Notes: a model not told the origin generated them from the letters alone. 64,000 bases of DNA from Ostreococcus lucimarinus (GCA_000092065.1 CP000590.1), one strand, 5' to 3'; positions 1 to 43,271 are shown, counted from the stretch's first letter. Made by a program: numbers and translations.

Positions 1-534
1 CCGCAACCGGTGCCGCCGCTTCCGGGGCCGCCGCCGCGGGCGTCGGCGTCGGCGGCTTCGCCGCCGCCGCCTTGGGCTTCGCCGCCGCCTTCGGCTTTTG
101 CACCATTACCACAACGAACGATTCTTCCGTCACCCCCGCCGACGCGATCGTCGCCTCATCCTTCAGCACGCTCCCCTTGTGCACCAAAACGATCGCCTCA
201 TCACCGTAACCCTGCGCTTTGCGCACCTCAGCCTTCACCGTCGCGACGTCGGCGCCTTCGTCCAGCTCCAGATCAAACTTTTGATTCGTCCTGCGTCGCC
301 CGCGCGCGCGTCGCGCGTCCTCGCCCGTCAGTCATCGCGTTTACGCGCGCATCAACCATCGATTCGCGTCTCGCTTCGCGCGCGCGCGCGTCGCGTCTAA
401 ACGCGCGCGCGTCAAAACGTCGCCGCAAATCCACCGCGTCCGCGTCCGGTGTCGCGCTCGCCCGCGCGCCGTCGCCCTCGCGTCGCGTCGCGCGCTCGCG
501 CGAACACTCACAGAGTCTTAAACTGCACCTTCAT
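1..534 (-). CDS. RAD23: RAD23-like UV excision repair / ubiquitin receptor protein, 5' part only (gene runs off the window start). Exon 1 is 512..534 (ATG AAG GTG CAG TTT AAG ACT CT, then GTGAGTG donor). Intron is 291..511 with a CTGAC branch point and a cgcag acceptor. Exon 2 runs from 290 down past position 1.
   Basis: Hand translation of the minus strand gives MKVQFKTL|[84 protein letters not shown]. This is a ubiquitin-like domain with the Rad23-typical FVVVMV.KPK motif followed by an Ala/Pro/Thr-rich linker. The splice joins in phase. Exon 1 corresponds to the last 8 codons of the ORF-track entry 508..1818(-). Confidence 0.7.
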
Positions 535-636
535 CGCGCGTGGGCGTCGCCGCGCGCGCGTCGGCGTCGCTTTGTGCCGCGCCGCCGTCGGGATGGATTC
601 GCGACTTCGCGACGCCGCTCGCGTCGCGCGCGCGCC
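535..636. promoter_or_regulatory. Putative bidirectional promoter/5'UTR region between the divergent RAD23 (ATG ending at 534, minus) and RtcB (ATG at 637, plus) starts.
   Basis: Inferred only from the head-to-head arrangement of two start codons about 100 bp apart. No motif was identified. Confidence 0.3.
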
Positions 637-2181
637 ATGACGACCGGCGCCGACGCCGACGCGCGTCGCACGTACGACGAGGAGCGCGCGTACGTCAGCG
701 CGGTGTCGCCGACGAAGCTCGTCGTCGCGAAAGGTTTCGTGCCGAACATGCGCGTGCCGGGAGAAATTTACGTCAACGAACGCCTGCGCGAGCTCGTCCT
801 GGACGAACTGCGCGCGTACTGCGACGAAGATCGACGCGGGGGAGGGTACTCGCCCGCGGTGAAACAGATCGCGAACGTGGCGGCGCTGCCGGGGGTGGTG
901 AGGGCGTCCATCGCGCTGCCGGACGTGCACAGCGGGTACGGGTTCGCGATTGGAAACGTGGCGGCGTTCGATTGCGGGGACGACGACGCGATCGTGTCGC
1001 CGGGAGGGGTGGGGTTCGATATAAATTGTGGCGTGCGGTTGCTGCGAACGAATCTGACGGAGGCGGAGGTGGGACCGGTGAAAGAGGCGCTGGCGCAGTC
1101 GCTGTTCGATCACATACCCGTCGGCGTGGGTTCGCGAGGGATCATTCCGACGTCTCCGGCGGCGCTGGAGGCGGCGTTGGAGATGGGAATGGATTGGAGT
1201 CTGAGGGAAGGGTACGCGTGGGCGGAGGATAAAGAGCACACGGAAGAATACGGGCGTATGTTGAATGCGGATCCGAGTAAAGTGAGCGCGAGGGCGAAGA
1301 AGCGCGGATTGCCGCAGATGGGAACGCTCGGGGCGGGGAATCATTACGCGGAGATTCAGGTCGTGGATGAGATTTACGACGAGTTCGCGGCGAAGAAGAT
1401 GGGAATCGATCGCGTTGGGCAGATTTGTATCATGATTCACAGCGGAAGTCGAGGTTTGGGGCATCAGGTGGCGACGGATTCGCTCACGGCGATGGAGCGC
1501 GCGATGGAGCGCGACGGCATCGAAGTAAACGATCGACAGCTCGCGTGCGCAAAGATAAGCAGCCAAGAAGGGCAAGATTATCTCGCCGCGATGGCGTGTG
1601 CGGCCAACTACGCGTGGGTGAATCGATCGAGCATGACATTTTTGTGCAGACAAGCGTTCGCGAAGATGTTCGGCAAGCCGCCAGACGAGCTCGACATGCA
1701 CGTCGTGTACGACGTGTCGCACAACATCGCCAAATTCGAGGAGCACATAGTGGATGGAGAGATGAAGACGCTGCTCGTGCACCGCAAAGGGAGCACGCGC
1801 GCGTTCCCACCCCATCACCCGCTCATCCCCGTCGATTACCAGTACACCGGTCAGCCGGTTTTAATCGGCGGCACGATGGGGACGTGCTCGTACATCCTCA
1901 CCGGCACCGAAAAGGGCATGCGAGACACGTTCGGATCGACGTGCCACGGCGCCGGTCGCGCGCGAAGCCGCAACAAGTCCAGACACGTCTTACAGTACGA
2001 AGACGTGCTCGCCAAGCTCAAGACCAAGGGCATCGCGATTCGCGTCGCTTCGCCGAAACTCGTCATGGAGGAGGCGCCCGAATCGTACAAGGACGTCACC
2101 GAAGTCGTCAACACGTGTCACGACGCCGGCATCTCCAAGAAATGCGTCAAGCTGCGCCCCATCGCCGTCGTCAAGGGTTAG
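637..2181 (+). CDS. RTCB: RNA-splicing ligase RtcB (tRNA-splicing ligase, HSPC117 family). The first in-frame ATG is at 637. The open frame from 10 to 636 is Pro/Ala/Arg-rich and is judged non-coding.
   Basis: Translation contains the RtcB signatures [27 protein letters not shown] and [12 protein letters not shown]...STCHGAGR. It is 514 aa from ATG 637, comparable to human RTCB (505 aa). Confidence 0.9.
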
Positions 2182-3624
2182 ACAATCACCATCACTAGCG
2201 ACATAGCCCCCGAATATCGACGTAGTCACCGCGAGTCCAATCGCGCCACCGTCTCCGCGCACATCCGCAGCGCGTCCGTCGCGCTCACCGCCGCGCCCTC
2301 CGCGCGCCGTCCTCCCATCACTCGCGTCTCGACGATCCCTCCCGCGCGATCGACGTCCCATCCCGCCCGCGCCGCGTCGTCGCTCGCCGTCGCCGCGTTC
2401 GTCGCCGTCCGCCTCCCCAGCGTCGCCGCCTCCATTCGCGCGTACGCCCGTCCCGCGCCCTCGATCGCGCGCGCCCGCGTCGCGACGAGCGCCTCCTCCG
2501 CCGCCCGCGCCGTCGCGCGCGAGCGCCACGTCGCGTCCCGCAGCGTCGTCGTCGCGCGCGCGTCGTCCGACGTCCACAGCGCGGCGATCGCCTCGCGCGT
2601 CGCGCGCGCGTCCTCGTCGTCCGCGTCGCTCGACGCGCGCTCGATCGCGAACCGCGCGAGCTCGAGGTCGTCGCGCGCGACCGCGCGCAGCGCGCGCGCG
2701 ACCGCGCCGTCGCCGTCGCCGTCGCCGTCGCGCGTCATCGTCGTAACGACCCGGCGTCGACGAGTGGCGCGCGCGACGCAGAGCGACGCGCGATGCGCGC
2801 GGTCGCGACGGCGCGCGCGACGCGTTCGCCGCGCGCGGTCGTCGCGTCGCGACGCGCGCGCGCGCGCGCGACGCGCGACGACGACGACGCGACGACGACG
2901 CGCGCGCGATTCGCGCGAACGGCGCTCGCGACGAGCGCGCTGATGACGATGGGCGCGCGCGCGGCGCGCGCGGCGAGCGCGAACGACGCCGTGCTCGCGG
3001 CGCTCGCGCGACGCGACGCGACGGCGCCGGACGGCGCGACGGCGCGGCGACTGCGCGGCGACGTCGACGAGGCGACGCGCGCGAGGACGCTCGCGCTCGC
3101 GGGGTGCGTCGCGACGCGCGACGCGACGACGCGATGACGCGCGCGACGACGCGATGACGCGAGACGCGAACGATGGGACGACGGCGACGCGCGCGGGACT
3201 GACGACGCGCGCGGGGCGACGATAGGGACGTCGACGGCGCGCGACGCGCGCTGCGAGGCGAAAATCTATCGAAACTCCGCGCCGACGCGACGACGGTGAC
3301 GAGACTCGCGAGCGAGGACGGCATGCGCGCGTCTAGGAACGGATTGACGCTCAGGGACGTGACGCTGGCGCTGGACGCGTTCGACGACGCGCTTCGAGCG
3401 GAGGGCTTGGGCGCGAAGTCGGCGTCGAGCGACGACGTGCGGCGAACGGCGGACGATTTGATTCGCACGCTCGAGCGTCTATCCGGGACGTCGGATCGAC
3501 GCGGCGGTTGATTTGTTTTGAGATTTATTCCTTTCGCGCGCGATTCGACGCCGAGCGACGCCGAGCGATTCCGAGCGATTCCGAGCGTCGTCTCGTCCCG
3601 CACACCGCCGCTCGCGAACCGACG

Positions 3625-4554
3625 ATGCTCGCGCGCGCCCCCGTCGCGCCGATCGCGCGCGCTCGACCTCCCGCGCCGCGCGCCCGCGCGCCCGTCGCTC
3701 GCGCCGCGCCGTCCGACGCGTCCGCGGTCGTCGCGTCGCGTCGCGTCGCGCTCGCGCTCCCGCTCGCGCTCGCCGCGCTCGACCGCTCGACCGCGCGCGC
3801 GGCGGACGCGCCGCGCGTCCTCGTCGTCGGCGCCACGGGCCAGACCGGCGCGCTCGTCGTCCGCGAGCTGTCGCGCGCGGGCAGGGCGCGCGCGATCGTC
3901 GCCGGCGCGCGATCGGCGGCGAAGGCGACGAAGCTCGGCTTGGACGCGCTGCCGGGGGTGGAGATTCTCGACGGCGTCGACGTCACGCGCGGCGTCGACG
4001 CGCTGGCGCTCGCGTTCGAGGGCTTCGACGTCGTCGTCGTCGCCACGGGATTCGTGCCGGGAAATCCGCTGAAGATGAACGCGGCGGCGCGCGCGGTGGA
4101 TAACGAGGGCGTGTGCGCGGTGGCGGACGCGGCGAAGCGAGCGAACGTCAAGCGCGTCGTGCTGATATCGTCCATCCTGACGAACGGACCGGGATTCGGG
4201 GCGCAGGATACCGCTGGATACAAGATCACGAACGCGTTCGGAAGGGTGCTCGAAGAAAAGCTCGTGGGGGAGAATCACCTGCGCGCGAGCGGCGTGCCGT
4301 GGACCATCGTTCGACCGGCTGGGTTGAAGACGGACGCGCCGAAAAATCCGCTCGTCGTCACCGGGGAAGACGTGATGACGAGCGGTGAGATCAGCCGCGA
4401 GCTCGTCGCGCGCGTGATGGTGGAGGCGGCGTTCGACGCGCGCGCGGAGGGTAAAGTTTACGAAATCGCGGAGAGCGGTTCCTTCGTCGGCGGCGATCCC
4501 GCGGGCGCGAAGACGTTCGCCCTCGATTCCGACCCGGCGTCGTGGTTCGCGTAA
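3625..4554 (+). CDS. NmrA-like / atypical SDR NAD(P)-binding Rossmann protein with an N-terminal organellar transit-peptide-like region.
   Basis: Has the VLVVGATGQTGALVVREL glycine-rich NAD(P)-binding motif, the VVLISSILTNGPGFG stretch, and an ARAPVAPIARARPPAPRA presequence. The first ATG in frame is at 3625 (MLARAP...). Confidence 0.75.
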   Translation: MLARAPVAPIARARPPAPRARAPVARAAPSDASAVVASRRVALALPLALAALDRSTARAADAPRVLVVGATGQTGALVVRELSRAGRARAIVAGARSAAKATKLGLDALPGVEILDGVDVTRGVDALALAFEGFDVVVVATGFVPGNPLKMNAAARAVDNEGVCAVADAAKRANVKRVVLISSILTNGPGFGAQDTAGYKITNAFGRVLEEKLVGENHLRASGVPWTIVRPAGLKTDAPKNPLVVTGEDVMTSGEISRELVARVMVEAAFDARAEGKVYEIAESGSFVGGDPAGAKTFALDSDPASWFA

Positions 4555-4627
4555 CATTTTCTATTCCGACCCGGCGTCGTGGTTCGCGTAACATTTTCTA
4601 TTCCGACCCGGCGTCGTGGTTCGCGTA
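4526..4627. repeat. 37-bp tandem repeat, about 2.8 copies (unit ATTCCGACCCGGCGTCGTGGTTCGCGTAACATTTTCT). Copy 1 contains the last 4 codons and TAA stop of the NmrA-like CDS.
   Basis: Direct inspection: copies start at 4526, 4563 and 4600 with period 37. The third copy diverges after ...cgcgtaa. Confidence 0.9.
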
Positions 4628-4869
4628 ATAATATTTTTGTAATTTCTTCGCCGTGAATCCGCGCGCTCGCGCGCCGCGCGTCGATCGTCGTTCGCGTCTC
4701 TCGCGCGCGGCGTCCTCTCGCGTTCGACGCAACCGCAACCGTTCGCCTCACTTCGCGGCACGCGCGCGCGCGACGCGCGACCGAGCGCGCGCGAGAGCGA
4801 GAGACTTTCGAACGCGTCGCGCGCGACGGCATCGCACCGCTCGACGCGCGCGCGCTGAATCGAACGAAA

Positions 4870-7020
4870 ATGACGGACGAAACGAAGCGGAATCCCCCGC
4901 CGTCGTTGGAAGATTTGGCAAAGAAACGCCGCGAAGACGCGAGCGCGGTGATGAAACCGACGTTCCTGAGCAAAGAAGAGCGTGCGAAGGCGGCGATCGC
5001 GCGTCGCGAGGCGGAAGTCGCGGCGCAGAGGACGCGGGCGGAGGAAGGTCGAAAGGCGGCGCCGCCGCCGCCGCCGCCGTCGACGAGCGGGACGCGGCGG
5101 AACGCGCCGACGTCTCGATTCGCGCCTCGATACGGCGGGGGTGGTCGCGGACGCGATGATCGGCGGCGAGGTGGAGGTAGGGGCGATCGTGACGATCGAG
5201 ATCGAGGTGGGAGACGAGATGAGCAAGACGAGCGCGAACGCGAGCTCGAGATGCTCAAGCGACAATACATGGGCGGAGACGCGAAGTCGAAAAAGGTGAA
5301 GACAGCAAATAGAGGAAAGTTTGTGTTCGATTGGCGGAAAGAGGAAGACACGTCGAGAGATTTGAATCCACTGTACGATCGGCCGCACGAAGTGGCGCCG
5401 ATGTTCGGTCGAGGGATGATCGGGGGCGTGGATCGAAGGGAGCAGGCGCGCTCGAACGCCGAGCGCGAGCGCGAACTCATCGTCAAGTCGAGGAAGGATC
5501 TCGGATCGAAGGACGCGGCGGGTGATGTGCGAAAGATGGAAGTTGAGCGCGAGCGTAAACGTAAGGATGTCGAGGCGCGCGAGTTGAAACGAACTTTCAA
5601 GGAGCACTGGAGTGATAAAAAGTTGGAAGACATGACAGAGCGCGATTGGCGCATTTTTCGAGAAGACTTTAACATTTCGTACAAAGGCGGCAAGTTACCG
5701 CTTCCCATGCGCGCGTGGAAAGAGTGCACGAGCTTGCCACAAGAGATATTGCGCGCTATCGCGCAGGTTGGGTACGAAAAGCCGTCGCCGATTCAAATGG
5801 CTAGCATTCCGATCGGTTTGCTGAAGAGAGACGTCATCGGCATCGCCGAGACGGGTTCGGGTAAGACGTGCGCGTTCGTCGTCCCCATGCTCGCGCACAT
5901 CATGCAGCTTCCGAAAATGACGGACGAAATTGCCGCGCACGGGCCGTACGCCCTGATCATGGCCCCTACGCGCGAGTTGGCGCAACAGATTGAGGAAGAG
6001 ACTCTCAAGTTTGCGCAGTATTTGGACTATCGCGTCGGCTTGGTCGTCGGCGGTCAATCGATCGAAGACCAAGGTTTTAAACTTCGCAAAGGGGTGGAGA
6101 TATTAGTCGGTACGCCCGGTCGTATCATAGATGTCATTGAGCGCCGATACACCGTGCTCAGTCAGTGCAACTACATCGTGCTCGACGAAGCCGATCGCAT
6201 GATCGACATGGGTTTCGAACCGCAAGTCGTGGCGGTGATGGAGGCGATGGGATCGGGTAACTTGAAACCCGAGGACGAGGCGGAAGAGCTCGACGGCCAG
6301 GCGCTCGAGCAAGGTGGGCCGACGTCGTCAAAGTACCGAACGACGTACATGTTTTCCGCCACCATGCCTCCGAGCGTGGAGCGTCTGGCGAGAAGTTATT
6401 TGCGCAATCCCGCGGTGGTCACCATCGGCAGCGCCGGGAAGACGTCCGATTTGATCAAGCAAGAGATTATTTGGGTGTCGAGAAACGAGCGCGACTCCAA
6501 ATTTGAGCTCGTGTTATCGCGACATCCCAACACGCAAGCCATCGTGTTCGTGAACGCCAAACGCTCGGTGGACGCCGTGGCGAATCTGTGCTACCGTCTC
6601 GGGTACTCGTGCGCGTCCATACACGGCGGCAAATCGCAAGACCAACGCGAGGAGTCTTTGCGCGGGTTCAAGGCTGGGGATTACGACATCTTGGTCGCCA
6701 CCGATGTCGCCGGTCGCGGGATCGACGTCAAGGGCATCGATCTCGTCGTCAATTACGAGTTGCCGCACACGATTGAAAATTACACCCATCGCATCGGGCG
6801 CACCGGTCGCGCCGGTCGCAAGGGCACCGCCGTGAGCTTCCTCACGAGCGACGATCGCGACATCATGTACGAGCTCAAAGAACTTCTCATCGAGAGCAAG
6901 AACCACGTCCCAGATGCGCTGGCAAACCACGAAGCGGCGCGCGTAAAGCCTCAGCGCGACGACAGAGGCAGACGCATGAACCGCGAAGACATTCGAGGGC
7001 AAGAAGCCATCATCTACTGA
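4870..7020 (+). CDS. DDX23: Pre-mRNA-splicing DEAD-box ATP-dependent RNA helicase Prp28 / DDX23 (U5 snRNP 100 kDa protein).
   Basis: An RD/RS/RG-rich N-terminal region precedes a helicase core with the Q motif, AETGSGKT (motif I), DEAD (VLDEADRMIDMGF), SAT and HRIGRTGRAG (motif VI). The N-terminal KFVFDWRKEEDTSRDLNPLYD resembles DDX23. Confidence 0.9.
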   Translation: MTDETKRNPPPSLEDLAKKRREDASAVMKPTFLSKEERAKAAIARREAEVAAQRTRAEEGRKAAPPPPPPSTSGTRRNAPTSRFAPRYGGGGRGRDDRRRGGGRGDRDDRDRGGRRDEQDERERELEMLKRQYMGGDAKSKKVKTANRGKFVFDWRKEEDTSRDLNPLYDRPHEVAPMFGRGMIGGVDRREQARSNAERERELIVKSRKDLGSKDAAGDVRKMEVERERKRKDVEARELKRTFKEHWSDKKLEDMTERDWRIFREDFNISYKGGKLPLPMRAWKECTSLPQEILRAIAQVGYEKPSPIQMASIPIGLLKRDVIGIAETGSGKTCAFVVPMLAHIMQLPKMTDEIAAHGPYALIMAPTRELAQQIEEETLKFAQYLDYRVGLVVGGQSIEDQGFKLRKGVEILVGTPGRIIDVIERRYTVLSQCNYIVLDEADRMIDMGFEPQVVAVMEAMGSGNLKPEDEAEELDGQALEQGGPTSSKYRTTYMFSATMPPSVERLARSYLRNPAVVTIGSAGKTSDLIKQEIIWVSRNERDSKFELVLSRHPNTQAIVFVNAKRSVDAVANLCYRLGYSCASIHGGKSQDQREESLRGFKAGDYDILVATDVAGRGIDVKGIDLVVNYELPHTIENYTHRIGRTGRAGRKGTAVSFLTSDDRDIMYELKELLIESKNHVPDALANHEAARVKPQRDDRGRRMNREDIRGQEAIIY

Positions 7021-7064: not shown

Positions 7065-7574
7065 CTAACCCGCGGACTCGTCGTCGATCGCCGCCGGCTG
7101 CGACAACCGCGGCCCTCCGCGCGCGTCGCCGTCCCCGTCTTCGCGTCGCAGCTCCCGCCAAATCGGTTTCATGCTTCCGTTGATCCGCTCTTCCCCCTCG
7201 CGCGTTCGTCCCTTCCACGTCAACCGTCCCCACGCCTCTCCCGATCGCCCGCTCGGTCGCGTCTTTATCTTCGTCAGCGTCCAATACGTGTCCGGATACC
7301 AATCCGGTCGCGCCCGCCAGCTGTGCTTCGTGAACGCGCGTCCGATCCCGCGGTCGCCGAGCGCGCTGGAGAGTTCGTACAGGTTCGGGCGCGCGCGCGT
7401 GAGATGCGTGATCGCCGCCTTGGCCGCCTCGCGCGCGGCGCTCGTCATGCCTCGCGACGCCGCCGACTGCCGCGCGCGTCGACGTCGGCGCGCGCCCGCG
7501 TCGGCGCCGAGAAAACCCATAACTTCCCGCGTCGCCGCGTCGTCGGCGAGCCTTGGGCGCGCGATCGCGTACAT
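7065..7574 (-). CDS. Hypothetical protein (169 aa). The Trp/Tyr-containing C-terminal half looks like a genuine small basic protein, possibly organellar or ribosomal. Start and exon structure are uncertain.
   Basis: The ORF has non-biased composition in its second half (...LTRARPNLYELSSALGDRGIGRAFTKHSWRARPDWYPDTYWTLTKIKTRPSGRSGEAWGRLTWKGR...). The overlapping plus-strand ORF is low-complexity. No family assignment is possible without a search. Confidence 0.35.
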   Translation of the reverse strand: MYAIARPRLADDAATREVMGFLGADAGARRRRRARQSAASRGMTSAAREAAKAAITHLTRARPNLYELSSALGDRGIGRAFTKHSWRARPDWYPDTYWTLTKIKTRPSGRSGEAWGRLTWKGRTREGEERINGSMKPIWRELRREDGDGDARGGPRLSQPAAIDDESAG

Positions 7575-7595
7575 TCGTATACGTTAACAGTGAGA

Positions 7596-7706
7596 GGGAT
7601 ATTAGCTCATCTGGTAGAGCGCTCGCTTTGCATACTCAGTGCGCGTCGACGCGAAGACGTCGACCATACGTGTGAGAGGTGCCGGGATCGACGCCTGGAT
7701 ATTCCA
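7596..7706 (+). tRNA. Nuclear tRNA-Ala (anticodon UGC) with a 38-nt intron (7633..7670) between positions 37 and 38. The mature length is 73 nt.
   Basis: Cloverleaf folded by hand. The acceptor stem is GGGATAT/ATATTCC with the G3:U70 wobble pair, the alanine identity element. The D-stem is GCTC/GAGC. The anticodon stem is CTCGC/GTGAG with loop TT-TGC-A. The variable loop is AGGTG. The T-arm is CCGGG-ATCGACG-CCTGG and the discriminator is A73. The intron lies at the canonical eukaryotic position and contains a CGTCGACG...CGTCGAC hairpin. Confidence 0.85.
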
Positions 7707-8008
7707 TTCCCTTTTTAGCCCATCCGTTTCTCATTTTTTATTTATACCGTCACACTGCTCTTTATATCCGACTGTCCGAATTTTCCCGACCACGCGCTTT
7801 TCGAGGCGGCGGGCCCGACGACCGCTCGGCGCGCGTCGATCGCGCGCGCGTCGCGCCGCCCCGCACACGCCCGCGCGACCGCGTCGCGCGCGACGTCGAC
7901 CCGCGACGACGACCGACGCTCGCTCGACCGCTCGACCGCGCCTCGCGCGTCCGAACGCGCGCGGCGAACGATCGATTCGATCTTTAAAAAGCGCCATCGC
8001 TATCCGAC

Positions 8009-9211
8009 ATGACGTCGGCGTCGATCGCGCGACTTCGACCGACGTCCACGAGCGCGTCGAGGCGCGACGTCGGCGCGAGAGCGCGCCAGGGGACGCGCGC
8101 GAACGGCGCGCGAACGCGCGCGAACGCGCGGACGGCGACGCGAACGATCGGGGACGCGACGGCGGGACGCGGGACGCGAGACGCGCGGATAAGCGCGAGA
8201 CGACGAGACGCGACGACGGCGACGCGCGCGGTCGGGGTGTCGAACTCGGACTCGACGAGCGGGATCGGGGGGGCGGAAACGATCGGGGGAGTGATGTCGT
8301 CGTCGTCGGACGACGGTGACGGGGCGCCGAGCGAGATTTGGGGTGGGCAGAGAAACGCGAGCGAGGCGAAGACGCCGAGACGCAAGGCGAGGACCAAGGC
8401 GGAGCGCGACGCGAGCGCGGAGTCGTACGAGTGGAGCGCGTGGGCGTCGTCGTGTGGAATCATAAGTATCGCCATTACGGCGACGTACTTTAGAATCTTG
8501 CGCGAGGTGGACGTGAACGGAGGGTTATTCCCGGTGGCTGAACTCGTGGCGCAGCTCGCGCTCATCGCCGGCGCCGCCGTCGGGATGGAGTTTTACGCTC
8601 GGTACGCGCACAAGCACTTGTGGCACGCGTCGTGGTGGAGCATGTCGAGCAAGTATCGCAGAGAGTGGAACAAGCCGATCTGGCTCTTACACGAGTCTCA
8701 TCACCTCCCGCGCGAGGGTGCGTACGAGGCGAACGACGTCTTCGCGCTCGTCAACGGCGTCCCGGCGTTCGCGCTGTGCGCGTTCGGCTTCTTCACCCCG
8801 GGCGTGTTCGGTGGCTTGTGCTTCGGCGCTGGTTTGGGAATCACGCTGTACGGTATCGCGTACATGTACGTCCACGACGGCTTGGTGCACAAGCGCTTTC
8901 CCACCGGCCCGCTCGGCAAGCTTCCTTTGCTGCGAAAAATCGCCGCCGGGCACACGATTCACCACACCGAGGCGTTCGAGGGCGTTCCTTGGGGACTTTT
9001 TCTCGGTATTCAAGAGCTCGAAGCCGTTCCGGGCGGCTTGGATGAACTCAACAAAGTCGTCGCCGCCGCTGAGCGCAAAGAGCAGCGCGACGAACGAGAC
9101 AATCGTGCGAGCGTCGGTCTCGTCACGCAAGGGACGCACATTCCCTCCCAGAAGGAGGCGCCGGCGTGCGTTCTCCCCGACGTCGCGGACAAAGGCGCCG
9201 GTCCGCGATAG
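8009..9211 (+). CDS. CHYB: Beta-carotene 3-hydroxylase (non-heme di-iron, plant CHY/BCH type) with a Ser/Thr/Arg-rich chloroplast transit peptide.
   Basis: Histidine boxes HKHLWH, HESHH, HDGLVHKRF and HTIHH sit in a four-TM fatty-acid-hydroxylase-like fold. The catalytic domain resembles plant and algal carotene hydroxylases. Confidence 0.85.
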   Translation: MTSASIARLRPTSTSASRRDVGARARQGTRANGARTRANARTATRTIGDATAGRGTRDARISARRRDATTATRAVGVSNSDSTSGIGGAETIGGVMSSSSDDGDGAPSEIWGGQRNASEAKTPRRKARTKAERDASAESYEWSAWASSCGIISIAITATYFRILREVDVNGGLFPVAELVAQLALIAGAAVGMEFYARYAHKHLWHASWWSMSSKYRREWNKPIWLLHESHHLPREGAYEANDVFALVNGVPAFALCAFGFFTPGVFGGLCFGAGLGITLYGIAYMYVHDGLVHKRFPTGPLGKLPLLRKIAAGHTIHHTEAFEGVPWGLFLGIQELEAVPGGLDELNKVVAAAERKEQRDERDNRASVGLVTQGTHIPSQKEAPACVLPDVADKGAGPR

Positions 9212-14151: not shown

Positions 14152-14904
14152 CTACTTTTTCTTTCGCTTCATCTCCGCCACGCGCTTGCGCACGAAGGCT
14201 GCCCTGAGCTTTTCGCGCGCGCCCTCGAGCGCTTCGCGCTCGCGTCGCTTCGCCGCCTCCACCGCGTCCCGTTCGCGTTCCGTCTCGCGCTCGATGTCGA
14301 ACACCACCCGCCGCGCCTCCGCCGCGCGTTCCGCGTCGCGCTCTTCGTTTTCGATCTCGCGCTCCCACCTCCGACGCTCGAGCTCGCGTCGCGCGTCGTC
14401 CGAAACCATGTCGCCCGCCGACGCGACGGCGTCGCGCGCGTCTCGCGCGCCGCGCGCCTCCACCGCGCCCCCGTCCCGTCCCTCCCGAGTCTTCGCCGCG
14501 AAATCCACCTCGTATTCGCTCGCCTCGCCCAGCGTCTCGCGTCCGCCCGCGACGAGTCGGTCGTACAGCGCCGCCTTTTTCTCCAGCGCCGCCGCCCGCT
14601 CGACGCCGCCGCCGCGCCGCGCCGCCCGCCGCGCCTCCTCGTCCCTCGCCGCGCGCGCCCGCACGCCCGCGTTCGAGCGCTCCGTCGCGCGTCGTTTTCG
14701 CCCGACCGCTTCGCGCGCGTCGCGCCCGCGTCGCGACGCTTCGCGCGCGCGCATCATCGTCGCGCGCAGCGTCACGAGCGACGCGTCGTCGACGCGCTCG
14801 ATCGCGCGCGCCGCGCGCGGCATCGCGGACGACGACGCGCGCCATCCGTAATCGACCCCGCGCGCGTCCGCGCGCGCGCCGCGATCGCGCGCGCCGCTCG
14901 ACAT
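14152..14904 (-). CDS. Hypothetical Glu/Arg/Ala-rich coiled-coil protein with a Lys-rich C-terminus (250 aa). Possibly a nuclear or splicing-associated coiled-coil protein.
   Basis: ERE/RRE heptad-like charged repeats (ELERRRWEREIENEERDAERAAEARRVVFDIERETERERDAVEAAKRREREALEGAREKLRAAFVRKRVAEMKRKKK). The N-terminal portion contains YGW and LYDRLVAGG. The opposite-strand ORFs are R-rich artefacts. Confidence 0.4.
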   Translation of the reverse strand: MSSGARDRGARADARGVDYGWRASSSAMPRAARAIERVDDASLVTLRATMMRAREASRRGRDAREAVGRKRRATERSNAGVRARAARDEEARRAARRGGGVERAAALEKKAALYDRLVAGGRETLGEASEYEVDFAAKTREGRDGGAVEARGARDARDAVASAGDMVSDDARRELERRRWEREIENEERDAERAAEARRVVFDIERETERERDAVEAAKRREREALEGAREKLRAAFVRKRVAEMKRKKK

Positions 14905-15185
14905 CGCGCGTCGACGAGTGTCACAGCGCGACGGCTCGAGCGTCGCGTCGACTCGACGCCCGATGCCTCGCGCGCGGCGTCGCGCGCGCGCCGCGATCGC
15001 GATCGCGATCGCGGCGCTCGCGCTCGAGACGCGCGGCGCGCGCGGCGACGACGACGCGCGCGCGCGCGCGGTTCGGTGCGTCGACGCGATGGCGGACGCG
15101 ACGACGACGACGCGACGCGACGACGACGCGACGCGCGAAGACTGACGACGAACGACGCGACGCGACCGATCGCAGCGAACGCGTG

Positions 15186-16487
15186 ATGCGCCGACCGGAC
15201 GCGCGAACGACGTCGCTCAGGATCGGATTCGGGTCGTGCAACAAACAATCGCTGGACATGACGCTGCTGTGGCCGGACGTCGCGCGCGAGGAATACGACG
15301 CGTTCGCGTGGATCGGAGACGCGGTGTACGCGGACGAACGGGTGAAACTGGCGAATGGGGAACGGACGCGACGGTATTTGGGGGAGAAAGCGCACGAGGA
15401 GGCGTACGAGAGGGTGAAGAGGGACGAGGCGTACGCGGCGGTGCGGAGGCGAGCGGACGTCGTCGGGACGTGGGATGATCACGATTATGGGTTTAATAAC
15501 GCGGGGAAACACTGGTCGCGCAAGGCGTTCGCGAAGAAGGCGTTTTTGGACTTCTTGGACGAACCGGTCGGGAGCGAGCGGCGCACGCGCGAGGGCGGGG
15601 TGTGGGACTCGGTGGATTACGTGGACGAGGCGAGCGGGCGACGAGCGCGGGTGATTTTGTTGGATTTGCGTTGGGATTTGGAAGAACCGGACGAGGTGAG
15701 CGAGGGGAAGATGATGAGCGAGACGCAGTGGGCGTGGTTCGAAACGCAGCTCGCGGCGGAACCGAAACCCGAGGTGACGATCGTGGGGAGTGGGATTCAA
15801 GTCATAGAGGCGCCGCACTTGATGTTGCGGCCGCTGGCGCCGTACGTCGAGCCGGCTCGACTCGTCGCCGAAGGCTTAGAGAGTTGGTCGCGCGTTCCTC
15901 GCGAGCAATCGAGATTGTTTGATACGATCAAACGAACGGGTGCGCGCGTGGTTTTCATGTCCGGCGACGTGCACCACGGACAAATCGCCGCGGCGGCGCC
16001 GGGATGTTACCTGCCGTACAAAACCATCGACATCACCTCGAGCGGGTTCACGCACACCCCGTTCAGGGACGCGAAGCCGTGGCCGTTGGCTCTGTTCTTG
16101 CGCCTCGCGACGCCGAAGTACTTTCGTCAATGGATTCTCCCCTCGTACACGCGTTGGACGGACATCAACTACGGCGAAATCGAAATCGATTGGGCGCGAG
16201 GCGCCGTCTTCGCTCGCATCAAGAGCGTCGGCGGCAAAGTCGCGCTCGAAGAATCCGTGACGTTCGCCGAGCTCGATGAAAACGTCCCAGATCTCGGGTT
16301 CGATCGTGCTGGATGCAACTTGACGCTCGAAATGAGTCCAAAAATGCGCGCCTTTCGCATCGTCGTCTTCTTCACCTGGCTCGCGGGCGTGTACGCGTTC
16401 AAATTCTTGGCGCCGATTTTCGTCGCCGCGTACGCGGTCCGGAAAGCGCGAAGATACGCGCGCGCGCGCGGCTTGAAGCAAGATTGA
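15186..16487 (+). CDS. PhoD-like / calcineurin-like metallophosphatase with a C-terminal transmembrane anchor.
   Basis: Has the metallophosphoesterase/PhoD motifs IGFGSCN, WIGDAVYAD, GTWDDHDYGFNNAG and VVFMSGDVHHG. A C-terminal hydrophobic segment FRIVVFFTWLAGVYAFKFLAPIFVAAYAV is present. The ATG is at 15186. Confidence 0.8.
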   Translation: MRRPDARTTSLRIGFGSCNKQSLDMTLLWPDVAREEYDAFAWIGDAVYADERVKLANGERTRRYLGEKAHEEAYERVKRDEAYAAVRRRADVVGTWDDHDYGFNNAGKHWSRKAFAKKAFLDFLDEPVGSERRTREGGVWDSVDYVDEASGRRARVILLDLRWDLEEPDEVSEGKMMSETQWAWFETQLAAEPKPEVTIVGSGIQVIEAPHLMLRPLAPYVEPARLVAEGLESWSRVPREQSRLFDTIKRTGARVVFMSGDVHHGQIAAAAPGCYLPYKTIDITSSGFTHTPFRDAKPWPLALFLRLATPKYFRQWILPSYTRWTDINYGEIEIDWARGAVFARIKSVGGKVALEESVTFAELDENVPDLGFDRAGCNLTLEMSPKMRAFRIVVFFTWLAGVYAFKFLAPIFVAAYAVRKARRYARARGLKQD

Positions 16488-16546
16488 TGAAGAATTGATA
16501 AAGAATTGATGAAGAATTGATGAAGACTTGATAAAGAATACTGAAT
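16485..16546. repeat. Imperfect 11-bp tandem repeat (TGATGAAGAAT / TGATAAAGAAT), about 5 copies, starting at the PhoD-like stop codon and extending into the 3' flank.
   Basis: Direct inspection: tgaagaattgataaagaattgatgaagaattgatgaagacttgataaagaat. Confidence 0.8.
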
Positions 16547-16575
16547 GTGTGAAATATAGCTACCATACCTAACGC

Positions 16576-17502
16576 CTACAACCTGCTCCTCGCCTTGTCC
16601 TTTGAAAGTTTCTTGACGTCACCCCTGCGAACGTCCCAGCCCGCGGACTCCGATCCGGGCGCGAGCAAACGCTTTGGCTCCACGTCCGGATTGCACCGAT
16701 ACTTGACGAAATCTTCTGGAAACTTCGCCCCTCGCGTTTGCAAGTACTCGTCGTCGATCAACGTTTGCCCCGTCGTGTGCGCGTCGCAACACAGCTCCAC
16801 GACGCAATCCGCCAAGATGTCCGCCTTGCGCCAGTTATCCCGCGACCCGAGCTCAAAATTCTCGCTCGCCAGGCTCTCCACGATCGTCGCCGGCCACAGC
16901 GCGTTCCCGGTGACGCCGTATTTCTCTCCCTCCGCCGCCGCGCCGAGCGCCACCATGCTCATCCCGCACTTGGACATGTAATACGCCGTCTTCGTCTCGT
17001 ACTCCTTATAGCTCTTCGGCAGCGGCGGTCCCATCGAGATCACCCGTCCGCCTCGCCCGCCCGCTCGCATCTCCCGCAGGCACGCCCGCGTCAGCACGAA
17101 CGCCCCTCGCGCGTTCACCCCCTGTATCAAATCGTACTTCTTCGTCGGCGTGTCCTCGATGTCTTGCCACCACAGCGCGCTCGCGTTGTTCACCAGCACG
17201 TCGATGCGGCCGTACCTCGCCTTCGCTCGCGCCACGCACGCCAGAATCGACGCCTCGTCCAGCAGATTCACGACGCATCCCATCGCGCGCGCGCCGTGCG
17301 TCGCCACCGCGTCGCACTCGCGCGCGACGCCGTGCACCGTCCCGGGAAGCGTCGCCGACTCGGTCGCGCTCTTCGCCGCGACGACGACGTTGACGCCGCG
17401 CCGCGCGAGCGCGAGCGCGCACGCGCGGCCGATCCCGCGCGACGCGCCGGAGACGACCGCCACCTTACCCGCGAGCGCGTCGGCGGCGGCGTCGCGCGGC
17501 AT
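16576..17502 (-). CDS. HSDL2: Short-chain dehydrogenase/reductase, HSDL2-like (hydroxysteroid dehydrogenase-like 2 SDR domain, no SCP2 extension).
   Basis: VAVVSGASRGIGRACALALARRGVNVVVAAK (TGxxxGIG), NNASAL, YxxxK (YYMSKCGMSMVALGAAAE) and NALWPAT motifs are present. There is strong block-wise similarity to human HSDL2 throughout. Confidence 0.85.
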   Translation of the reverse strand: MPRDAAADALAGKVAVVSGASRGIGRACALALARRGVNVVVAAKSATESATLPGTVHGVARECDAVATHGARAMGCVVNLLDEASILACVARAKARYGRIDVLVNNASALWWQDIEDTPTKKYDLIQGVNARGAFVLTRACLREMRAGGRGGRVISMGPPLPKSYKEYETKTAYYMSKCGMSMVALGAAAEGEKYGVTGNALWPATIVESLASENFELGSRDNWRKADILADCVVELCCDAHTTGQTLIDDEYLQTRGAKFPEDFVKYRCNPDVEPKRLLAPGSESAGWDVRRGDVKKLSKDKARSRL

Positions 17503-23691: not shown

Positions 23692-23948
23692 CCGACTGTA
23701 CCTTGTAACAGCAGCACCGTGGTAGCAGACAACACCCACGCCCCGCGCACGATGAACCGCACACGCGCGCGCGCGCACGTCAGATTGACGCACGAACGCG
23801 CGCGAACGCGCGAAGAAATCGCGTGCGCGTGTTTACCGCGCGAAGCCGCGCCCGCGACGCGCCCGCGACGCACGCGCGACGCGAACACGCGAACGCGCGA
23901 CGGTGAACACCCTCGGCGTCGCGCGATCGATCGCGCGTGGTGACGGCG

Positions 23949-26900
23949 ATGGCGAGCGAACCGGCGCGCGCGAAGTTCAAATCCCTGCGAGGATGGAACG
24001 TCGATAAGTACCAGTTCGATGTGCGCGCGCAGAGCGCGTACAACGTCCTGCCGGGGACGCAACGTTTGAAATTGCTGTGGAGGCGCGGACACAAGCGCGC
24101 GGAGACGAAGACGGCGAACGTGACGCGCGGGGAAGCGGTGTGGGATGAAACGCTGACGCTGTCGTGCTCGATGTTTGTGAATCCGAAGACTGGGATGTAC
24201 GAGAGCAAGCCGGCGATGTTCGTGCTGCAGACGGTGAACGAGGACGGGTCGATTGGGAAGACGTACGCGGAGGCGACGATTGATCTGTTGGAGTTTGCGT
24301 TGAATCCGGGACGGGAACTGTCGCAGACGGTGCCGATGAGACAAGGAGCGGTGTCGATGTTGACACATTTACAGTTCGCCGTCACGGCGACGCCGTTGGC
24401 GGAAAACGTGGCGTTGAGCGACGTGTCGAGCGCGCTGAGCGTCGCCGATCTAGCCGACGTCGCCGAGTTGGCAGCGACGAGCGCGGTGCCGGAAAAGTTG
24501 GCGGTGAACGTGATCGGGGAGCACGAAGATGAGGGATATTTCGATGAGAAACTCGATGTCAGAGAGGATGCGCAATCGGAAAGTGAAAAAGAGGATAGCG
24601 AATTTGCCTACTTTGACGAACGCCTGGCGTACAAGGTGGAGGGCGACGACACGGAACAACTTCCGCCGCCGACTGCGGAGGAACTATTATCGGGCGTTGA
24701 CGCTGAAGAAGGCATCGTACCCGGTGTGAAGATGATGCGCTTGATTGTCGGGAAAAAGTGCAAAATTTTCGTGCGGGGTCAGGATAACTTTGGCAACGCA
24801 CGCACGACAGGCGGGGACAACGTCGAGGGCGTGTTGATCGGTCCGAGCGGGCAGCGCGGGTTAGTGAGCACTAAAGACCACGGCGATGGCTCGTACTTGC
24901 TAGAGTTTACGTGCATGCAACAAGGGATTTGGACCCTTCGTACGCGGTTTAACGGTAGACTGAGCGTGGAGCGACACAAGCTCGTGGTTTCCTTCGGTCC
25001 GCTCACGGCCCAGGACGTTCGGGTGCAGTTACCGAAGCCGCCGTTCAGATGCGGTGCGTACACGGACATGCAAGTCGTTGTTGAGCATCCGGAAGATGGG
25101 AGAATTCTAACTGGTGCAGAGGCGTTTAACGTTCGCCTCGTCTCACCGGCGGGCTTGTCGTTGGGCGTTCCGCTCGACATTCGTCCCGGGACGACCGCCG
25201 CCGTCGCGCGAATCAACTGGCCCGAAGTTGGCGAGCATCAGCTTGACGTAAGACTAGATGGTGAATCGCTTCGCGGGTCGCCCATGCGAGTCGAAGTTGT
25301 GCCTGAGGATTTGTGCCTAGCCGCTTGTCAACTTCAAGGTCCGGGTGTTCATCGATGCACGGCGGGCATACGCTCCGCGTTTGTCATCGAAGCTCACGAC
25401 AGTCGTGGTAATCGTCTCCTTTCTGGAGGCGCGCCACTCTTTTTGGGCATTCGCACGGCATCGAATGAGTCGTACTCGGGTGAGATTGTTGATTTCGGCA
25501 ACGGCACGTACGAAGCTTCGTACTCTGTTCGTGTTTCTGGTTATTACGAATTATCGCTCGCCATCTTAGGTGAGGAACTCGTAATTAAAGGCTTATGTGA
25601 ACCCGGCAAGGCCGTCGTCGCGGGTTGTGAGCTGGTCGGCGACGCCGGATTGGACCTTGAAGTTGGCTCTTCCGGTCGCTACAGTATCATTCGTCACGAT
25701 GCATACGGCAACAGAGTGCCAACGCGTCAGGGACAAATCAAGTTCAAAGTTACCGCCGATGGACCTGGACCCGCAACTTGTACGATGATTGATAGAGCTG
25801 ATGGCGTTAGTGATGTCGATGTCAGTACCTCTGTAGCCGGGAGGTATTTCGTCCAGGTGACGGCTGGTGATCAAGAACCGATTCCTGGTTCGCCGTTTGA
25901 AGTCATCGCATATCCTAGTCCTGCTTCGCACGAAACGAGTGTGACGACAGTGTTCGGTGCACAGTTAGCCGCAAGTGATAGCGATGTCCTCGTGGCTGTT
26001 GCTGGCGAAGAGGTCTCGTTATCAGTAGCACCTCGTGATATGTACGGCAACGTCACTGTCTTCTCCAAGTCGGCGGCGATCACTGCGACAGCGACGGGAG
26101 GTGGCGTCTCGACTTCCTTTGAAGAACGCACTGGAACTCGCACGGAAGTTTCTTTGTTCTCGACTTTCAGACTAGCTGGGTCGTACTTGCTCACCGCAAA
26201 AATCGGCGACAAGGTGTTAGACGGCTACCCAAGGATTCTCACGGTTGTTTCGGCGGCCACTGAACCTCGAAAGTGCATGTTGTTTGGTGACGCGCTTCAA
26301 GGCGTGAGGTGTAACCGAGTTTCAACACTCACCGTGCACGCAGCAGATAAATTTGGAAACTTGAGATCGACGGGTGGCGACGTTGTCGATGTCAACTTGT
26401 GCTCACCCGACGGAAAGTACGTCGTTGCTTCAAAGGTTGATGACCACGCCGACGGAACGTACGGCGCAAAATTCAAGCTCGAGCGCCCGGGGACGTGGGA
26501 AATCCAACTCGTCGTCAATGGCCGCGGTGGCCGGACGCAAGTCAATGAGATTACTTCGTATTTTGCAGGCGTCAAAGCGAACGAGTGTACGTTTTCTGGC
26601 ATGGGTTCGGATGGTGTTGAAGGCGTCGTATGCTTTAAGCAGAGTGACATCGTCATCGAGCCAGCTGACTTTGAGCAAAACTCACGCCTCATGAGCGGGA
26701 AAGAAGCCGTCGCAGTCCGTATTCTCACGCCATCTGGAGGTATTAGCTCTGTGGATCTCAAGTTCGAAAATGGAAAATATAGAGGATCGTACACCTGGAC
26801 TCAGCCAGGTCAGCACACCGTGTCCGTGTCTCTTGATCAAGAAGCCATCGTGGGGTCGCCGTTTTCCGTTGAGGCCATGAGTGCGTTGCCTCAAATTGCC

Positions 26901-42299: not shown

Positions 42300-43271
42300 T
42301 CACTGATTCAGCGGCGGATGCACCAATACATACTCCTCCGCGTACGCCCCCGTGCGATCATCTCCCTCATCACACGCCACGGGTGCGCACGACTTCGAAC
42401 ACGTGTACACGGCGATTGACCCAAAATCGAGCGCGGAGTCGCTCTCGGCGTCGACGCCGAGCTGACTGATGATTGTGGGCAAAATCTGAAACTCAAATTT
42501 TCTCGGCGCGCCGCACCGTTCGCAGTGCGGAATGTTATCCGTATTCGGCGCGTGCGTCACCGACGGCCACAGCGGCTTCGCCCCGGGCTCCGGGCAATAC
42601 CTCAACACCTGCTCCGGGTCGTTCTTCAGCATGACGTGAAACGTCGCCAACTGCTCCATATCCTCATCGACCACCGCAGCCTCGATCGCGTCGATCTCTT
42701 CCGCGGTCATGTCCCCCCCCACGTCACCATCCACGCACTCCACTCCCCCCATCGCGTCTCCCTCCCCTCGCTCCTCCGTCTCCACCACCAACTCGTACTC
42801 TGGATACGTCTTCGTCGCCGCCGCGCTCGCGTCCCACCAATCGCACCTCGCGCGCCGCGTCGCCGTCTCCTCCGCCGTCAGCGCGCGCCCCGCTTCTCCC
42901 TCCGCCACCGGATCCCACCCGTAGAACGCGTTCGCCCTCGGAAGCTGTCCCCTGAACGCCCGCGCGCCGCCCCTCGCGTGCGTCTCGCCCCCTCGCGTCC
43001 CGTTCACGAACACGTACACCGTCCGATGAAACGCGCTCGCCTCCGCGTCCACCGGCGCGTACACCTGGCACAAAAACGCCATTCGCTCCCCCTCGTTCGT
43101 CTCCAGCGCGCTCGCCCGCGGCACGCGCACGGGATCCATCCACGCCGGCGCGCCGCCCGCCTTGCTCGGAAACCGCCACGCCTCGAGGTCGTCGTCCCGT
43201 CGCGCGCGCTCGAGAAAGCCCAGCGACCACTCGCGGTCGTCGCTCAGCGCGTCGTCGTCGTCGTCGTCCAT
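42300..43271 (-). CDS. PDCD2L: PDCD2-like protein (PDCD2_C domain; TSR4 / PDCD2L family, no MYND finger).
   Basis: The N-terminal WSLGFLE...PSKAGGAPAWMDP and C-terminal YCPEPGAKPLWPS...IPHCERCGAPRKFEFQILP...IAVYTCSKSC match the PDCD2/TSR4 C-terminal domain pattern. The ATG is at 43271 in a CCATGG context. Confidence 0.75.
   Translation of the reverse strand: MDDDDDDALSDDREWSLGFLERARRDDDLEAWRFPSKAGGAPAWMDPVRVPRASALETNEGERMAFLCQVYAPVDAEASAFHRTVYVFVNGTRGGETHARGGARAFRGQLPRANAFYGWDPVAEGEAGRALTAEETATRRARCDWWDASAAATKTYPEYELVVETEERGEGDAMGGVECVDGDVGGDMTAEEIDAIEAAVVDEDMEQLATFHVMLKNDPEQVLRYCPEPGAKPLWPSVTHAPNTDNIPHCERCGAPRKFEFQILPTIISQLGVDAESDSALDFGSIAVYTCSKSCAPVACDEGDDRTGAYAEEYVLVHPPLNQ

Follow-up and report, generated by a model that had tools for sequence, protein, structure and literature searches.

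A nuclear tRNA-Ala(UGC) gene with a lineage-specific 38-nt intron at a syntenic Micromonas locus

A 64,000-nucleotide (nt) stretch of DNA, entered as Ostreococcus lucimarinus (GCA_000092065.1, CP000590.1) and here called the window, carries at positions 7596..7706 a tRNA-Ala(UGC) gene whose anticodon loop is interrupted by a 38-nt intron. Attention had been drawn to this gene by an earlier reading of the sequence (the original prediction), and the observation was confirmed. The identity of the gene, the position of the intron, the absence of the intron from orthologues and the pattern of conservation are matters of observation. We conclude that this is very probably a functional nuclear tRNA-Ala(UGC) gene, likely to be present in a single copy, and that its 38-nt intron is specific to its lineage.

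Across the 64-kb window, RF00005 (tRNA) was the only Rfam family to score above threshold. Its match covered 7596..7706 (+) end to end (model positions 1-71) with 36.7 bits, against a gathering score of 29, and the alignment left a 40-nt unaligned insert within the anticodon loop. When introns were allowed, ARAGORN called a tRNA-Ala(tgc) with a 38-nt intron and with exactly the limits 7596..7706; in its default setting, without intron mode, it called no tRNA at 7596..7706. Therefore the gene is found only as an interrupted gene, and there is no competing intron-free fold, let alone the better-scoring one that the original prediction had named as the finding that would speak against it. The stems could be read in the sequence: an acceptor stem GGGAUAU/AUAUUCC with G3:U70 and the discriminator A73, a D arm GCUC-AUCUGGUA-GAGC, an anticodon stem CUCGC/GUGAG, and a T arm CCGGG-AUCGACG-CCUGG. 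This cloverleaf, with stems of 7, 4, 5 and 5 base pairs (bp), fits the tRNA covariance model, and the G3:U70 wobble, A73 and the anticodon UGC identify the gene as one for alanine.

Removal of 7633..7670 restores a 7-nt anticodon loop and places the intron at the canonical eukaryotic position, between tRNA nucleotides 37 and 38. The boundary is ambiguous by one base: ARAGORN set it one base earlier (36/37), which yields G37, a state present in no orthologue. We prefer the 37/38 placement because it gives the loop UUUGCAU, the same as in every intronless orthologue. Thus, the clean fold with its alanine-specific G3:U70 pair was as the original prediction had described it, and the 38-nt intron that it had put exactly between nucleotides 37 and 38 lies at or next to that site. 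The signals for transcription by RNA polymerase III (Pol III) are also in place, namely an internal A box, a B box and an oligo-T run downstream (Table 1), as judged against the general A-box and B-box consensus sequences. In every orthologue the oligo-T run begins 0-5 nt from the discriminator base.

Orthologous regions were fetched by means of homologues of the two genes between which the tRNA gene lies, those for the mitochondrial ribosomal protein S34 (MRP-S34) and for a beta-carotene hydroxylase. The tRNA-Ala(UGC) gene found there is intronless in L007/8/9 and L010/11/12 (MRP-S34 58-61% identical to that of the window in both sets) and in L013 (51-58%), and likewise in the outgroup M. pusilla CCMP1545 (L142, GG663735.1), where it is inverted and occupies L142 4157..4229. 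An intron at the same site was found in two further lineages. In L144, with DNA ~94-95% identical to the window, the exons are identical at 73/73 positions and the intron measures 29 nt (TACTGCGCGTCGACGACGCCGTACATACG) with a 5-bp stem; in L138, with a DDX23 gene 87% identical, the intron is an AT-rich 40-mer (TGTATACTATGAGTGTAATACTCATACCGTAGACGAAATT) with a hairpin of its own. The closest sampled sister, L014, is represented by a sole contig that ends inside the D arm of the tRNA. Six MRP-S34 places were fetched from metagenome contigs of up to 581 kb (L001-L006), and in 6/6 the tRNA and its intron were identical to those of the window; the contig collection has 432 blocks in which exactly this MRP-S34 protein is indexed.

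For an analysis of covariation the introns were removed and six distinct orthologues were aligned. All of the cloverleaf pair cells (126/126) were standard, against 29-58% when the partners were slid by 1-3 columns, and compensatory changes were present at eight pairs; G3:U70, A73 and the whole anticodon loop were invariant. The perfect fit to the cloverleaf together with the eight compensatory pairs argues that the gene is functional. Between the window and L144, no change was found in the 73 exon positions, the intron differed by 3 mismatches and 9 gap columns in 38 positions, and the two 300-nt flanks carried 42 and 33 mismatches plus indels. Such a pattern points to selection on the exons and not on the intron, as would be expected of a working gene with an unconstrained intron rather than a dead one. 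The whole tRNA gene set of Micromonas RCC299 numbers 51 (PMC3673656, Table 1), and with so few a second tRNA-Ala(UGC) copy is unlikely; to judge from this count, the gene is probably the only one of its kind.

The history of the intron was considered on two gene trees. The DDX23 tree (510 ungapped columns, unrooted) joins the window with L007 (98% bootstrap) and L010 with L013 (94%), in addition to L138. In the hydroxylase tree, for which Bathycoccus and CCMP1545 served as outgroups, L010 is basal, with a bootstrap value of only 52%. On this rooting, one gain followed by a loss in L007 or two independent gains would each amount to two events, and an intron older than the genus would call for three or more losses. 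We lean slightly towards a recent gain inside the Micromonas radiation, once M. pusilla had branched off, either as a single gain with a later loss in the L007 lineage or as two gains (one in window/L144 and one in L138), with subsequent growth and change through small indels and the formation of local palindromes. The outgroup CCMP1545, L010 and L013 lack the intron; two events suffice on the DDX23 and hydroxylase trees; and the introns of the window and L138 differ greatly in sequence, in GC content (61% vs 33%) and in the position of the hairpin. For Lachancea thermotolerans, too, the intron of tRNA-Ala(UGC) has been argued to be a recent gain (PMC4090602). Nevertheless, intron loss is mechanistically easy and is known to recur (PMC4090602), so that several losses are not improbable; moreover, the position of the root is poorly supported, the strict orthology of the inverted CCMP1545 copy is uncertain, and the closest sampled sister, L014, is cut off in the D arm.

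A broader interpretation, which we advance tentatively and hold to be just short of probable, is that the locus records how a eukaryotic tRNA intron was born and began to evolve, at a syntenic single-copy tRNA-Ala(UGC) gene, during the Micromonas radiation. The shifts in length (29, 38 and 40 nt) would then have arisen by small indels, local inverted duplications would have produced the lineage-specific hairpins, and the intronless state would have been kept or regained in sister lineages. If this interpretation is true, the locus provides a natural series for testing intron gain at position 37/38.

A possible but more doubtful course is that the intron is old, was present in the ancestor of all sampled Micromonas and was lost at least three times (in L007, in L010/L013 and in CCMP1545), for instance through recombination with a reverse transcript of the mature tRNA. 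Consistent with it, the introns of the window and L138 share a local similarity of 19 nt (TACTCAGTGCGCGTCGACG vs TACTCA-TAC-CGTAGACG), which was equalled in score by 0.44% of shuffles, although these kept mononucleotide composition only and three pairs were tried. The gene types of the window and L138 also have in common the D-loop A14-U15 and the variable-loop G48, at which all intronless copies differ, and tRNA introns are widespread in chlorophytes (PMC13578239). Against this, repeated loss takes more events than a recent gain on the best tree, and the 19-nt similarity is rich in words that are common in the genome. Taken together, the intron similarity and the shared loop states may point, weakly, to a single origin before the split between the window and L138.

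Several further observations were made on the orthologous regions. In CCMP1545 the tRNA gene is inverted relative to all other lineages and MRP-S34 stands beside a cyclophilin gene instead of DDX23; this region is locally rearranged. At the hydroxylase loci of L136, L137 and L139, neither a tRNA nor MRP-S34 was found within 3 kb upstream (positions 1..3000). The hydroxylase of these three groups with that of L138 (100% bootstrap), yet other genes precede it, so synteny is broken within a close clade. The upstream part of L143 is too short to show the tRNA, and no tRNA was found within 475 nt in L015. A protein search with the DDX23 fragment of the L014 lineage gave no longer L014 contig, and one member of the cluster led to L144. 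A scan of the metagenomes for L014 with the pattern GGGBNNTTAGCTCATCTGGTAGAGCG returned 120 bacterial tRNA loci, the pattern being too general. The L014-type 5′ end matched only phage tRNA-Lys genes in viral contigs, and the shared 31-nt 5′ exon had no match in the viral or prokaryotic genome collections. In L144, DDX23 was called at 3776..5546 as two open reading frames (ORFs; 399 and 181 amino acids, aa) and not as one of 716 aa, which reflects either a frameshift or an assembly error.

The intron of the window contains the hairpin noted in the original prediction, with a loop of CGAAGA and a stem of 7 bp (Table 1), and this hairpin alone folds at -9.7 kcal/mol. It is only mildly unusual for the genome. 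The 64 kb contain 49 occurrences of its palindrome, CGTCGACG, which ranks 26th among 29,080 8-mers and is found at 23 times the frequency expected from base composition and 3 times that expected from dinucleotides; a perfect hairpin of at least 7 bp is present in 3.3% of all 38-nt segments of the sequence. Between the window and L144 only the ends of the intron are conserved, UACU on the 5′ side and CAUACG on the 3′ side. Bases CAUA of the latter (I-6..I-3) can pair with bases 35..32 of the anticodon loop, through G35-C(I-6), U34-A(I-5), a U33.U(I-4) mismatch and U32-A(I-3). C(I-2), G(I-1) and U38 then stay unpaired and form a 3-nt bulge around the 3′ splice site. The pair U32:A(I-3) is possible in the window, in L144 and in L138, where U32-A, U33-A and U34-A can form.

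Folding did not favour such an arrangement. With the cloverleaf constrained, the probability of U32:A(I-3) was at most 0.014 and that of the anticodon-intron pairs at most 0.05. In the window, the canonical-type structure reached -28.8 kcal/mol vs -36.2 kcal/mol for the best cloverleaf-compatible fold, a difference of 7.4 kcal/mol; the corresponding values were 2.9 in L144 and 3.3 in L138. No strict bulge-helix-bulge motif (BHB, of the hBHBh′ type) was present in the window, given the U33.U mismatch in the 4-position helix and a 5′ splice site that lies inside a 14-nt loop (C36..C49 of the precursor). L144 comes nearer to a BHB, with a 5′ bulge of 2-3 nt. Eukaryotic endonucleases act by a ruler mechanism and need no local motif (PMC4090602), the anticodon-intron pair is an arrangement described in tRNA precursors of eukaryotes (PMC4090602), and eukaryotic tRNA splicing copes with introns that are extensively mutated (PMC4090602, PMC3400036). 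Hence, the absence of a BHB is no argument against splicing, because the eukaryotic enzyme measures distance and its introns tolerate heavy mutation.

It had been proposed that the hairpin may contribute to a BHB-like structure recognised by the splicing endonuclease, and this part of the original prediction was not supported: there is no strict BHB, folding is unfavourable and the hairpin is not conserved. It is unlikely that the hairpin forms the outer helix (h′) of a BHB-like motif required by the endonuclease. Its closing pair, G(I13):C(I-7), does adjoin G35:C(I-6), so that coaxial stacking is possible, and some hairpin is present in all three intron variants; however, the stem differs among lineages in sequence, in length (7 bp in the window, 5 bp in L144 and 8 bp in L138) and in position. 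In L138 the stem of the hairpin is unrelated and AT-rich, with 15 nt between its end and the 3′ splice site, and in the window the 14-nt loop stands where a 3-nt bulge should be. Furthermore, the intronless orthologues work without any hairpin, a BHB is unnecessary for endonucleases of eukaryotes, whose introns withstand extensive mutation (PMC4090602, PMC3400036), and ~3% of random 38-mers of the genome already contain such a hairpin. In our view the hairpin is incidental to the turnover of sequence at this spot, the genome being full of such words: it is a recent local elaboration and not a conserved recognition element. The intron itself is a lineage-specific, fast-evolving passenger with constraint on its ends only.

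Other origins of the insert were considered. No Rfam family of introns matched at E <= 0.5, and with only 38 nt the insert is no self-splicing intron of group I or group II, whose ribozyme core takes up hundreds of nucleotides. When the three introns were compared by short-word BLAST with the window and with ~100 kb of Micromonas loci, no second copy turned up; the matches of the GC-rich core of the intron were of <=13 nt and consisted of common words only. Within the window and these loci there was thus no sign of a mobile-element origin, be it from a miniature inverted-repeat transposable element (MITE) or an introner-like element.

Some findings weigh against the conclusion that this is a functional gene with a lineage-specific intron. 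The Rfam score of the interrupted gene is 36.7 bits, vs 55-56 bits for the intronless orthologues, although a lower score is expected because of the 40-nt insert. The inversion of the CCMP1545 tRNA gene relative to its neighbours makes the strict orthology of the outgroup copy less than certain. The anticodon-intron helix is weak and has near-zero probability in the cloverleaf-constrained thermodynamic ensembles. Finally, the unconstrained minimum-energy fold disrupts the anticodon stem, with a z-score of only -1.45; we regard unconstrained folding as uninformative on the structure of the precursor. It is nevertheless very improbable that the 38-nt insertion inactivated the gene and left a pseudogene: the reduced Rfam score would fit this, but the insertion occupies the one position that eukaryotic splicing accepts and has the base for the anticodon-intron pair in place, the 73/73 identical exons belong to two lineages with diverged flanks and introns, the cloverleaf, G3:U70, the B box and the terminator are intact, a different intron is found at the same site in a second lineage (L138), the locus is identical in six metagenome contigs and its MRP-S34 protein is indexed in 432 blocks, and the tRNA gene set of Micromonas is minimal (PMC3673656).

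From what is known of eukaryotic tRNA biogenesis, the following route of expression can be proposed. RNA polymerase III would transcribe the gene from its internal A and B boxes and terminate at the T5 run downstream, giving a precursor in which a single base separates the anticodon from the 38-nt intron that follows it. Excision would fall to the Sen complex, the tRNA splicing endonuclease of eukaryotes, which would go by the 'ruler' distance from the mature tRNA body, perhaps aided by the U32:A(I-3) anticodon-intron pair and the 3-nt bulge at the 3′ site. A tRNA ligase, which may be RtcB or an enzyme of the RNL/Trl1 type, would then join the halves into a 73-nt tRNA with the loop UUUGCAU, as in the intronless orthologues. 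Land plants and fungi use a 5′-3′ (RNL/Trl1-type) tRNA ligase, and animals and archaea use RtcB (PMC3400036).

The gene belongs to a known kind and is ordinary; what it adds is a syntenic series of presence, absence and length variants. Canonical introns are common in tRNA genes of chlorophytes, where they interrupt 61% of those of C. reinhardtii, and the introns of O. tauri are unusually long, about 64 nt (PMC13578239). Like the 37/38 introns of Chlamydomonas, Ostreococcus and Micromonas, the present one is short (38 nt), is situated one base 3′ of the anticodon, has a 3′ end that can pair with the anticodon loop and lies in a gene of Pol III architecture, in a host group rich in intron-bearing tRNA genes (PMC13578239). 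Nothing essential sets it apart from them, and its GC-rich palindromic core mirrors the composition of the genome. Permuted tRNA genes, too, are known from Micromonas and Ostreococcus (PMC3978253), and permuted genes that depend on a BHB are reported for this algal group by Maruyama et al. (2010), as that work is cited in PMC3978253. The archaeal hBHBh′ introns and the permuted or ectopic-intron tRNA genes of Ostreococcus, Micromonas and Cyanidioschyzon are processed by homologous splicing enzymes, and the 3′ site described here can likewise lie in a bulge of 3 nt that adjoins a helix of four positions. Unlike them, it shows no strict BHB, has a 14-nt 5′ loop and a U.U mismatch, and belongs to a colinear gene interrupted at the canonical site.

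The closest parallel in kind is the tRNA-Ala(UGC) intron of Lachancea thermotolerans, which has no counterpart in related yeasts and was read as a recent gain (PMC4090602). The isoacceptor is the same, the intron is present in one lineage and not in close relatives, and the mature parts are highly similar. The yeast belongs to another supergroup, however, and all three of its gene copies carry the intron, whereas here one syntenic, probably single-copy locus presents three lengths (29, 38 and 40 nt) and four intronless states. The mechanism by which eukaryotic tRNA introns are gained at the canonical site is regarded as unexplained (PMC4090602), and earlier surveys have covered the tRNA gene sets of Micromonas (PMC3673656, PMC3978253). 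The value of the locus is therefore comparative: it offers an orthologue-by-orthologue view of an intron that is absent or 29, 38 or 40 nt long in close lineages of an abundant marine alga. Few known cases are tightly bracketed by phylogeny, and this locus could serve as one, without being a surprise.

Table 1. Positions in the 64-kb window of the tRNA-Ala(UGC) gene, its parts and signals, and the neighbouring genes
Feature	Position	Strand	Basis and remarks
tRNA-Ala(UGC) gene including intron	7596..7706	+	111 nt, 73 nt once spliced; Rfam, ARAGORN intron mode
5′ exon, tRNA positions 1-37	7596..7632	+	Sequence reading; agrees with 5′ halves of intronless orthologues
A box	7603..7614	+	TAGCTCATCTGG; sequence reading
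Anticodon TGC	7629..7631	+	Within 5′ exon
Intron, 38 nt, canonical 37/38 position	7633..7670	+	TACTCAGTGCGCGTCGACGCGAAGACGTCGACCATACG; Rfam, ARAGORN; boundary ambiguous by one base
Intron hairpin	7645..7664	+	Arms GTCGACG 7645..7651 and CGTCGAC 7658..7664, loop CGAAGA
Intron bases CAUA (I-6..I-3)	7665..7668	+	Able to pair with anticodon-loop bases 35..32
3′ exon, tRNA positions 38-73	7671..7706	+	Discriminator A at 7706; sequence reading, orthologue alignment
B box	7685..7695	+	GGATCGACGCC; one departure from consensus, A54 for T54
TTTTT, Pol III terminator	7712..7716	+	6 nt past discriminator; sequence reading
Second T run, T6	7734..7739	+	Sequence reading
RtcB-type RNA ligase ORF	10..2181	+	Pfam RtcB E = 4e-164; domain in C-terminal 438 aa
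DDX23/PRP28 helicase	4870..7020		Pfam
MRP-S34, divergent neighbour, synteny anchor	7065..7574	-	Pfam MRP-S34
Beta-carotene hydroxylase (FA_hydroxylase), downstream, second synteny anchor	8009..9211	+	Pfam, named homologues

The neighbouring genes agree with the nuclear location that had been proposed for the tRNA gene: DDX23/PRP28, MRP-S34 and RtcB in its flanks are eukaryotic, and the same arrangement around the tRNA is found on a nuclear scaffold of M. pusilla CCMP1545 (GG663735.1). An organellar, archaeal or giant-virus origin was rejected, as genes of the eukaryotic nucleus surround the tRNA gene and the region is also part of a nuclear scaffold of Micromonas. The homologues of the neighbouring genes come from Mamiellophyceae and Micromonas, and on this evidence the window belongs to the nuclear genome of a Micromonas species (Mamiellophyceae), a marine green alga that is abundant. 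For the hydroxylase, the best named homologue is that of M. pusilla CCMP1545 (69% identity), with Bathycoccus lower in the list, and several lineages are 80-91% identical; the window is closer to M. commoda-type lineages than to M. pusilla CCMP1545. The GC content around the tRNA gene is 62-67%.

An RtcB gene had been noted about 5 kb upstream and put forward as the source of the ligase that would rejoin the tRNA halves. The gene is indeed present, ~5.4 kb upstream of the tRNA gene and on the plus strand; in the metagenome gene calls (L001-L006) it encodes 514 aa, at about 637..2181 (+). Its supposed link to splicing was not supported. Outside the window, RtcB and the tRNA gene were found in this arrangement only in the same species (L001-L006) and in the ~95% identical L144, which is what common descent would give, and no sign of a functional link between the position of RtcB and the tRNA gene was found in the window and the fetched relatives. 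Gene order in eukaryotic nuclei generally tells little about function.

Homologues of MRP-S34 align only from about residue 43, and the indels that distinguish the stretch 7450-7575 from L144 have lengths not divisible by three. Translation probably begins at Met43, with its first base at 7448 and not at 7574. With this start, the 5′ end of the tRNA gene is ~148 nt away from the start codon instead of 21 nt.

Position 54 of the T loop is A in the window, L144, L138, L007 and CCMP1545 and G in L010 and L013; the usual U/T is present in none of the orthologues. A54 is common in eukaryotic cytosolic tRNA-Ala, and G54 seems less usual. The 36 nt upstream of the tRNA (window 7560..7595; L144 6106..6141) are AT-rich, GCGCGATCGCGTAC..TCGTAT...TTAACAGTG.GA, as are ~40 nt downstream (window 7707..7745; L144 6244..6283), TTCC.TTTTTAGCCCATCC.GTTTCTCATTTTTTATTTATA. 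Between the window and L144 both flanks are far better conserved than the remaining intergenic DNA, and the upstream sequence of L014 also has GTATACGTAAACAGTG. These conserved AT-rich flanks may be upstream Pol III promoter elements.

Elsewhere in the window, a tRNA-Pro(ggg) with a 1714-nt intron at c[14864..16666] was dismissed as an artefact of the ARAGORN intron mode, with no Rfam match there. A sub-threshold match to the twister-sister ribozyme at 43176..43256 (+) (27.2 bits vs 34, E = 0.11) is most likely due to chance. A full-length match to the plant C/D-box small nucleolar RNA (snoRNA) snoR14 (RF01280) at 46241..46326 (+) also fell below threshold (35 bits vs 40, E = 0.003); it may be a genuine C/D snoRNA gene. 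Finally, a giant ORF of 5148 aa at 23937..39383 (+) contains at least 11 filamin/ABP280 repeats together with MgtE_N, invasin-D3 and GEX2-like immunoglobulin (Ig) domains, and it coincides with a drop in GC content from ~0.64 to ~0.55 across 24-38 kb.

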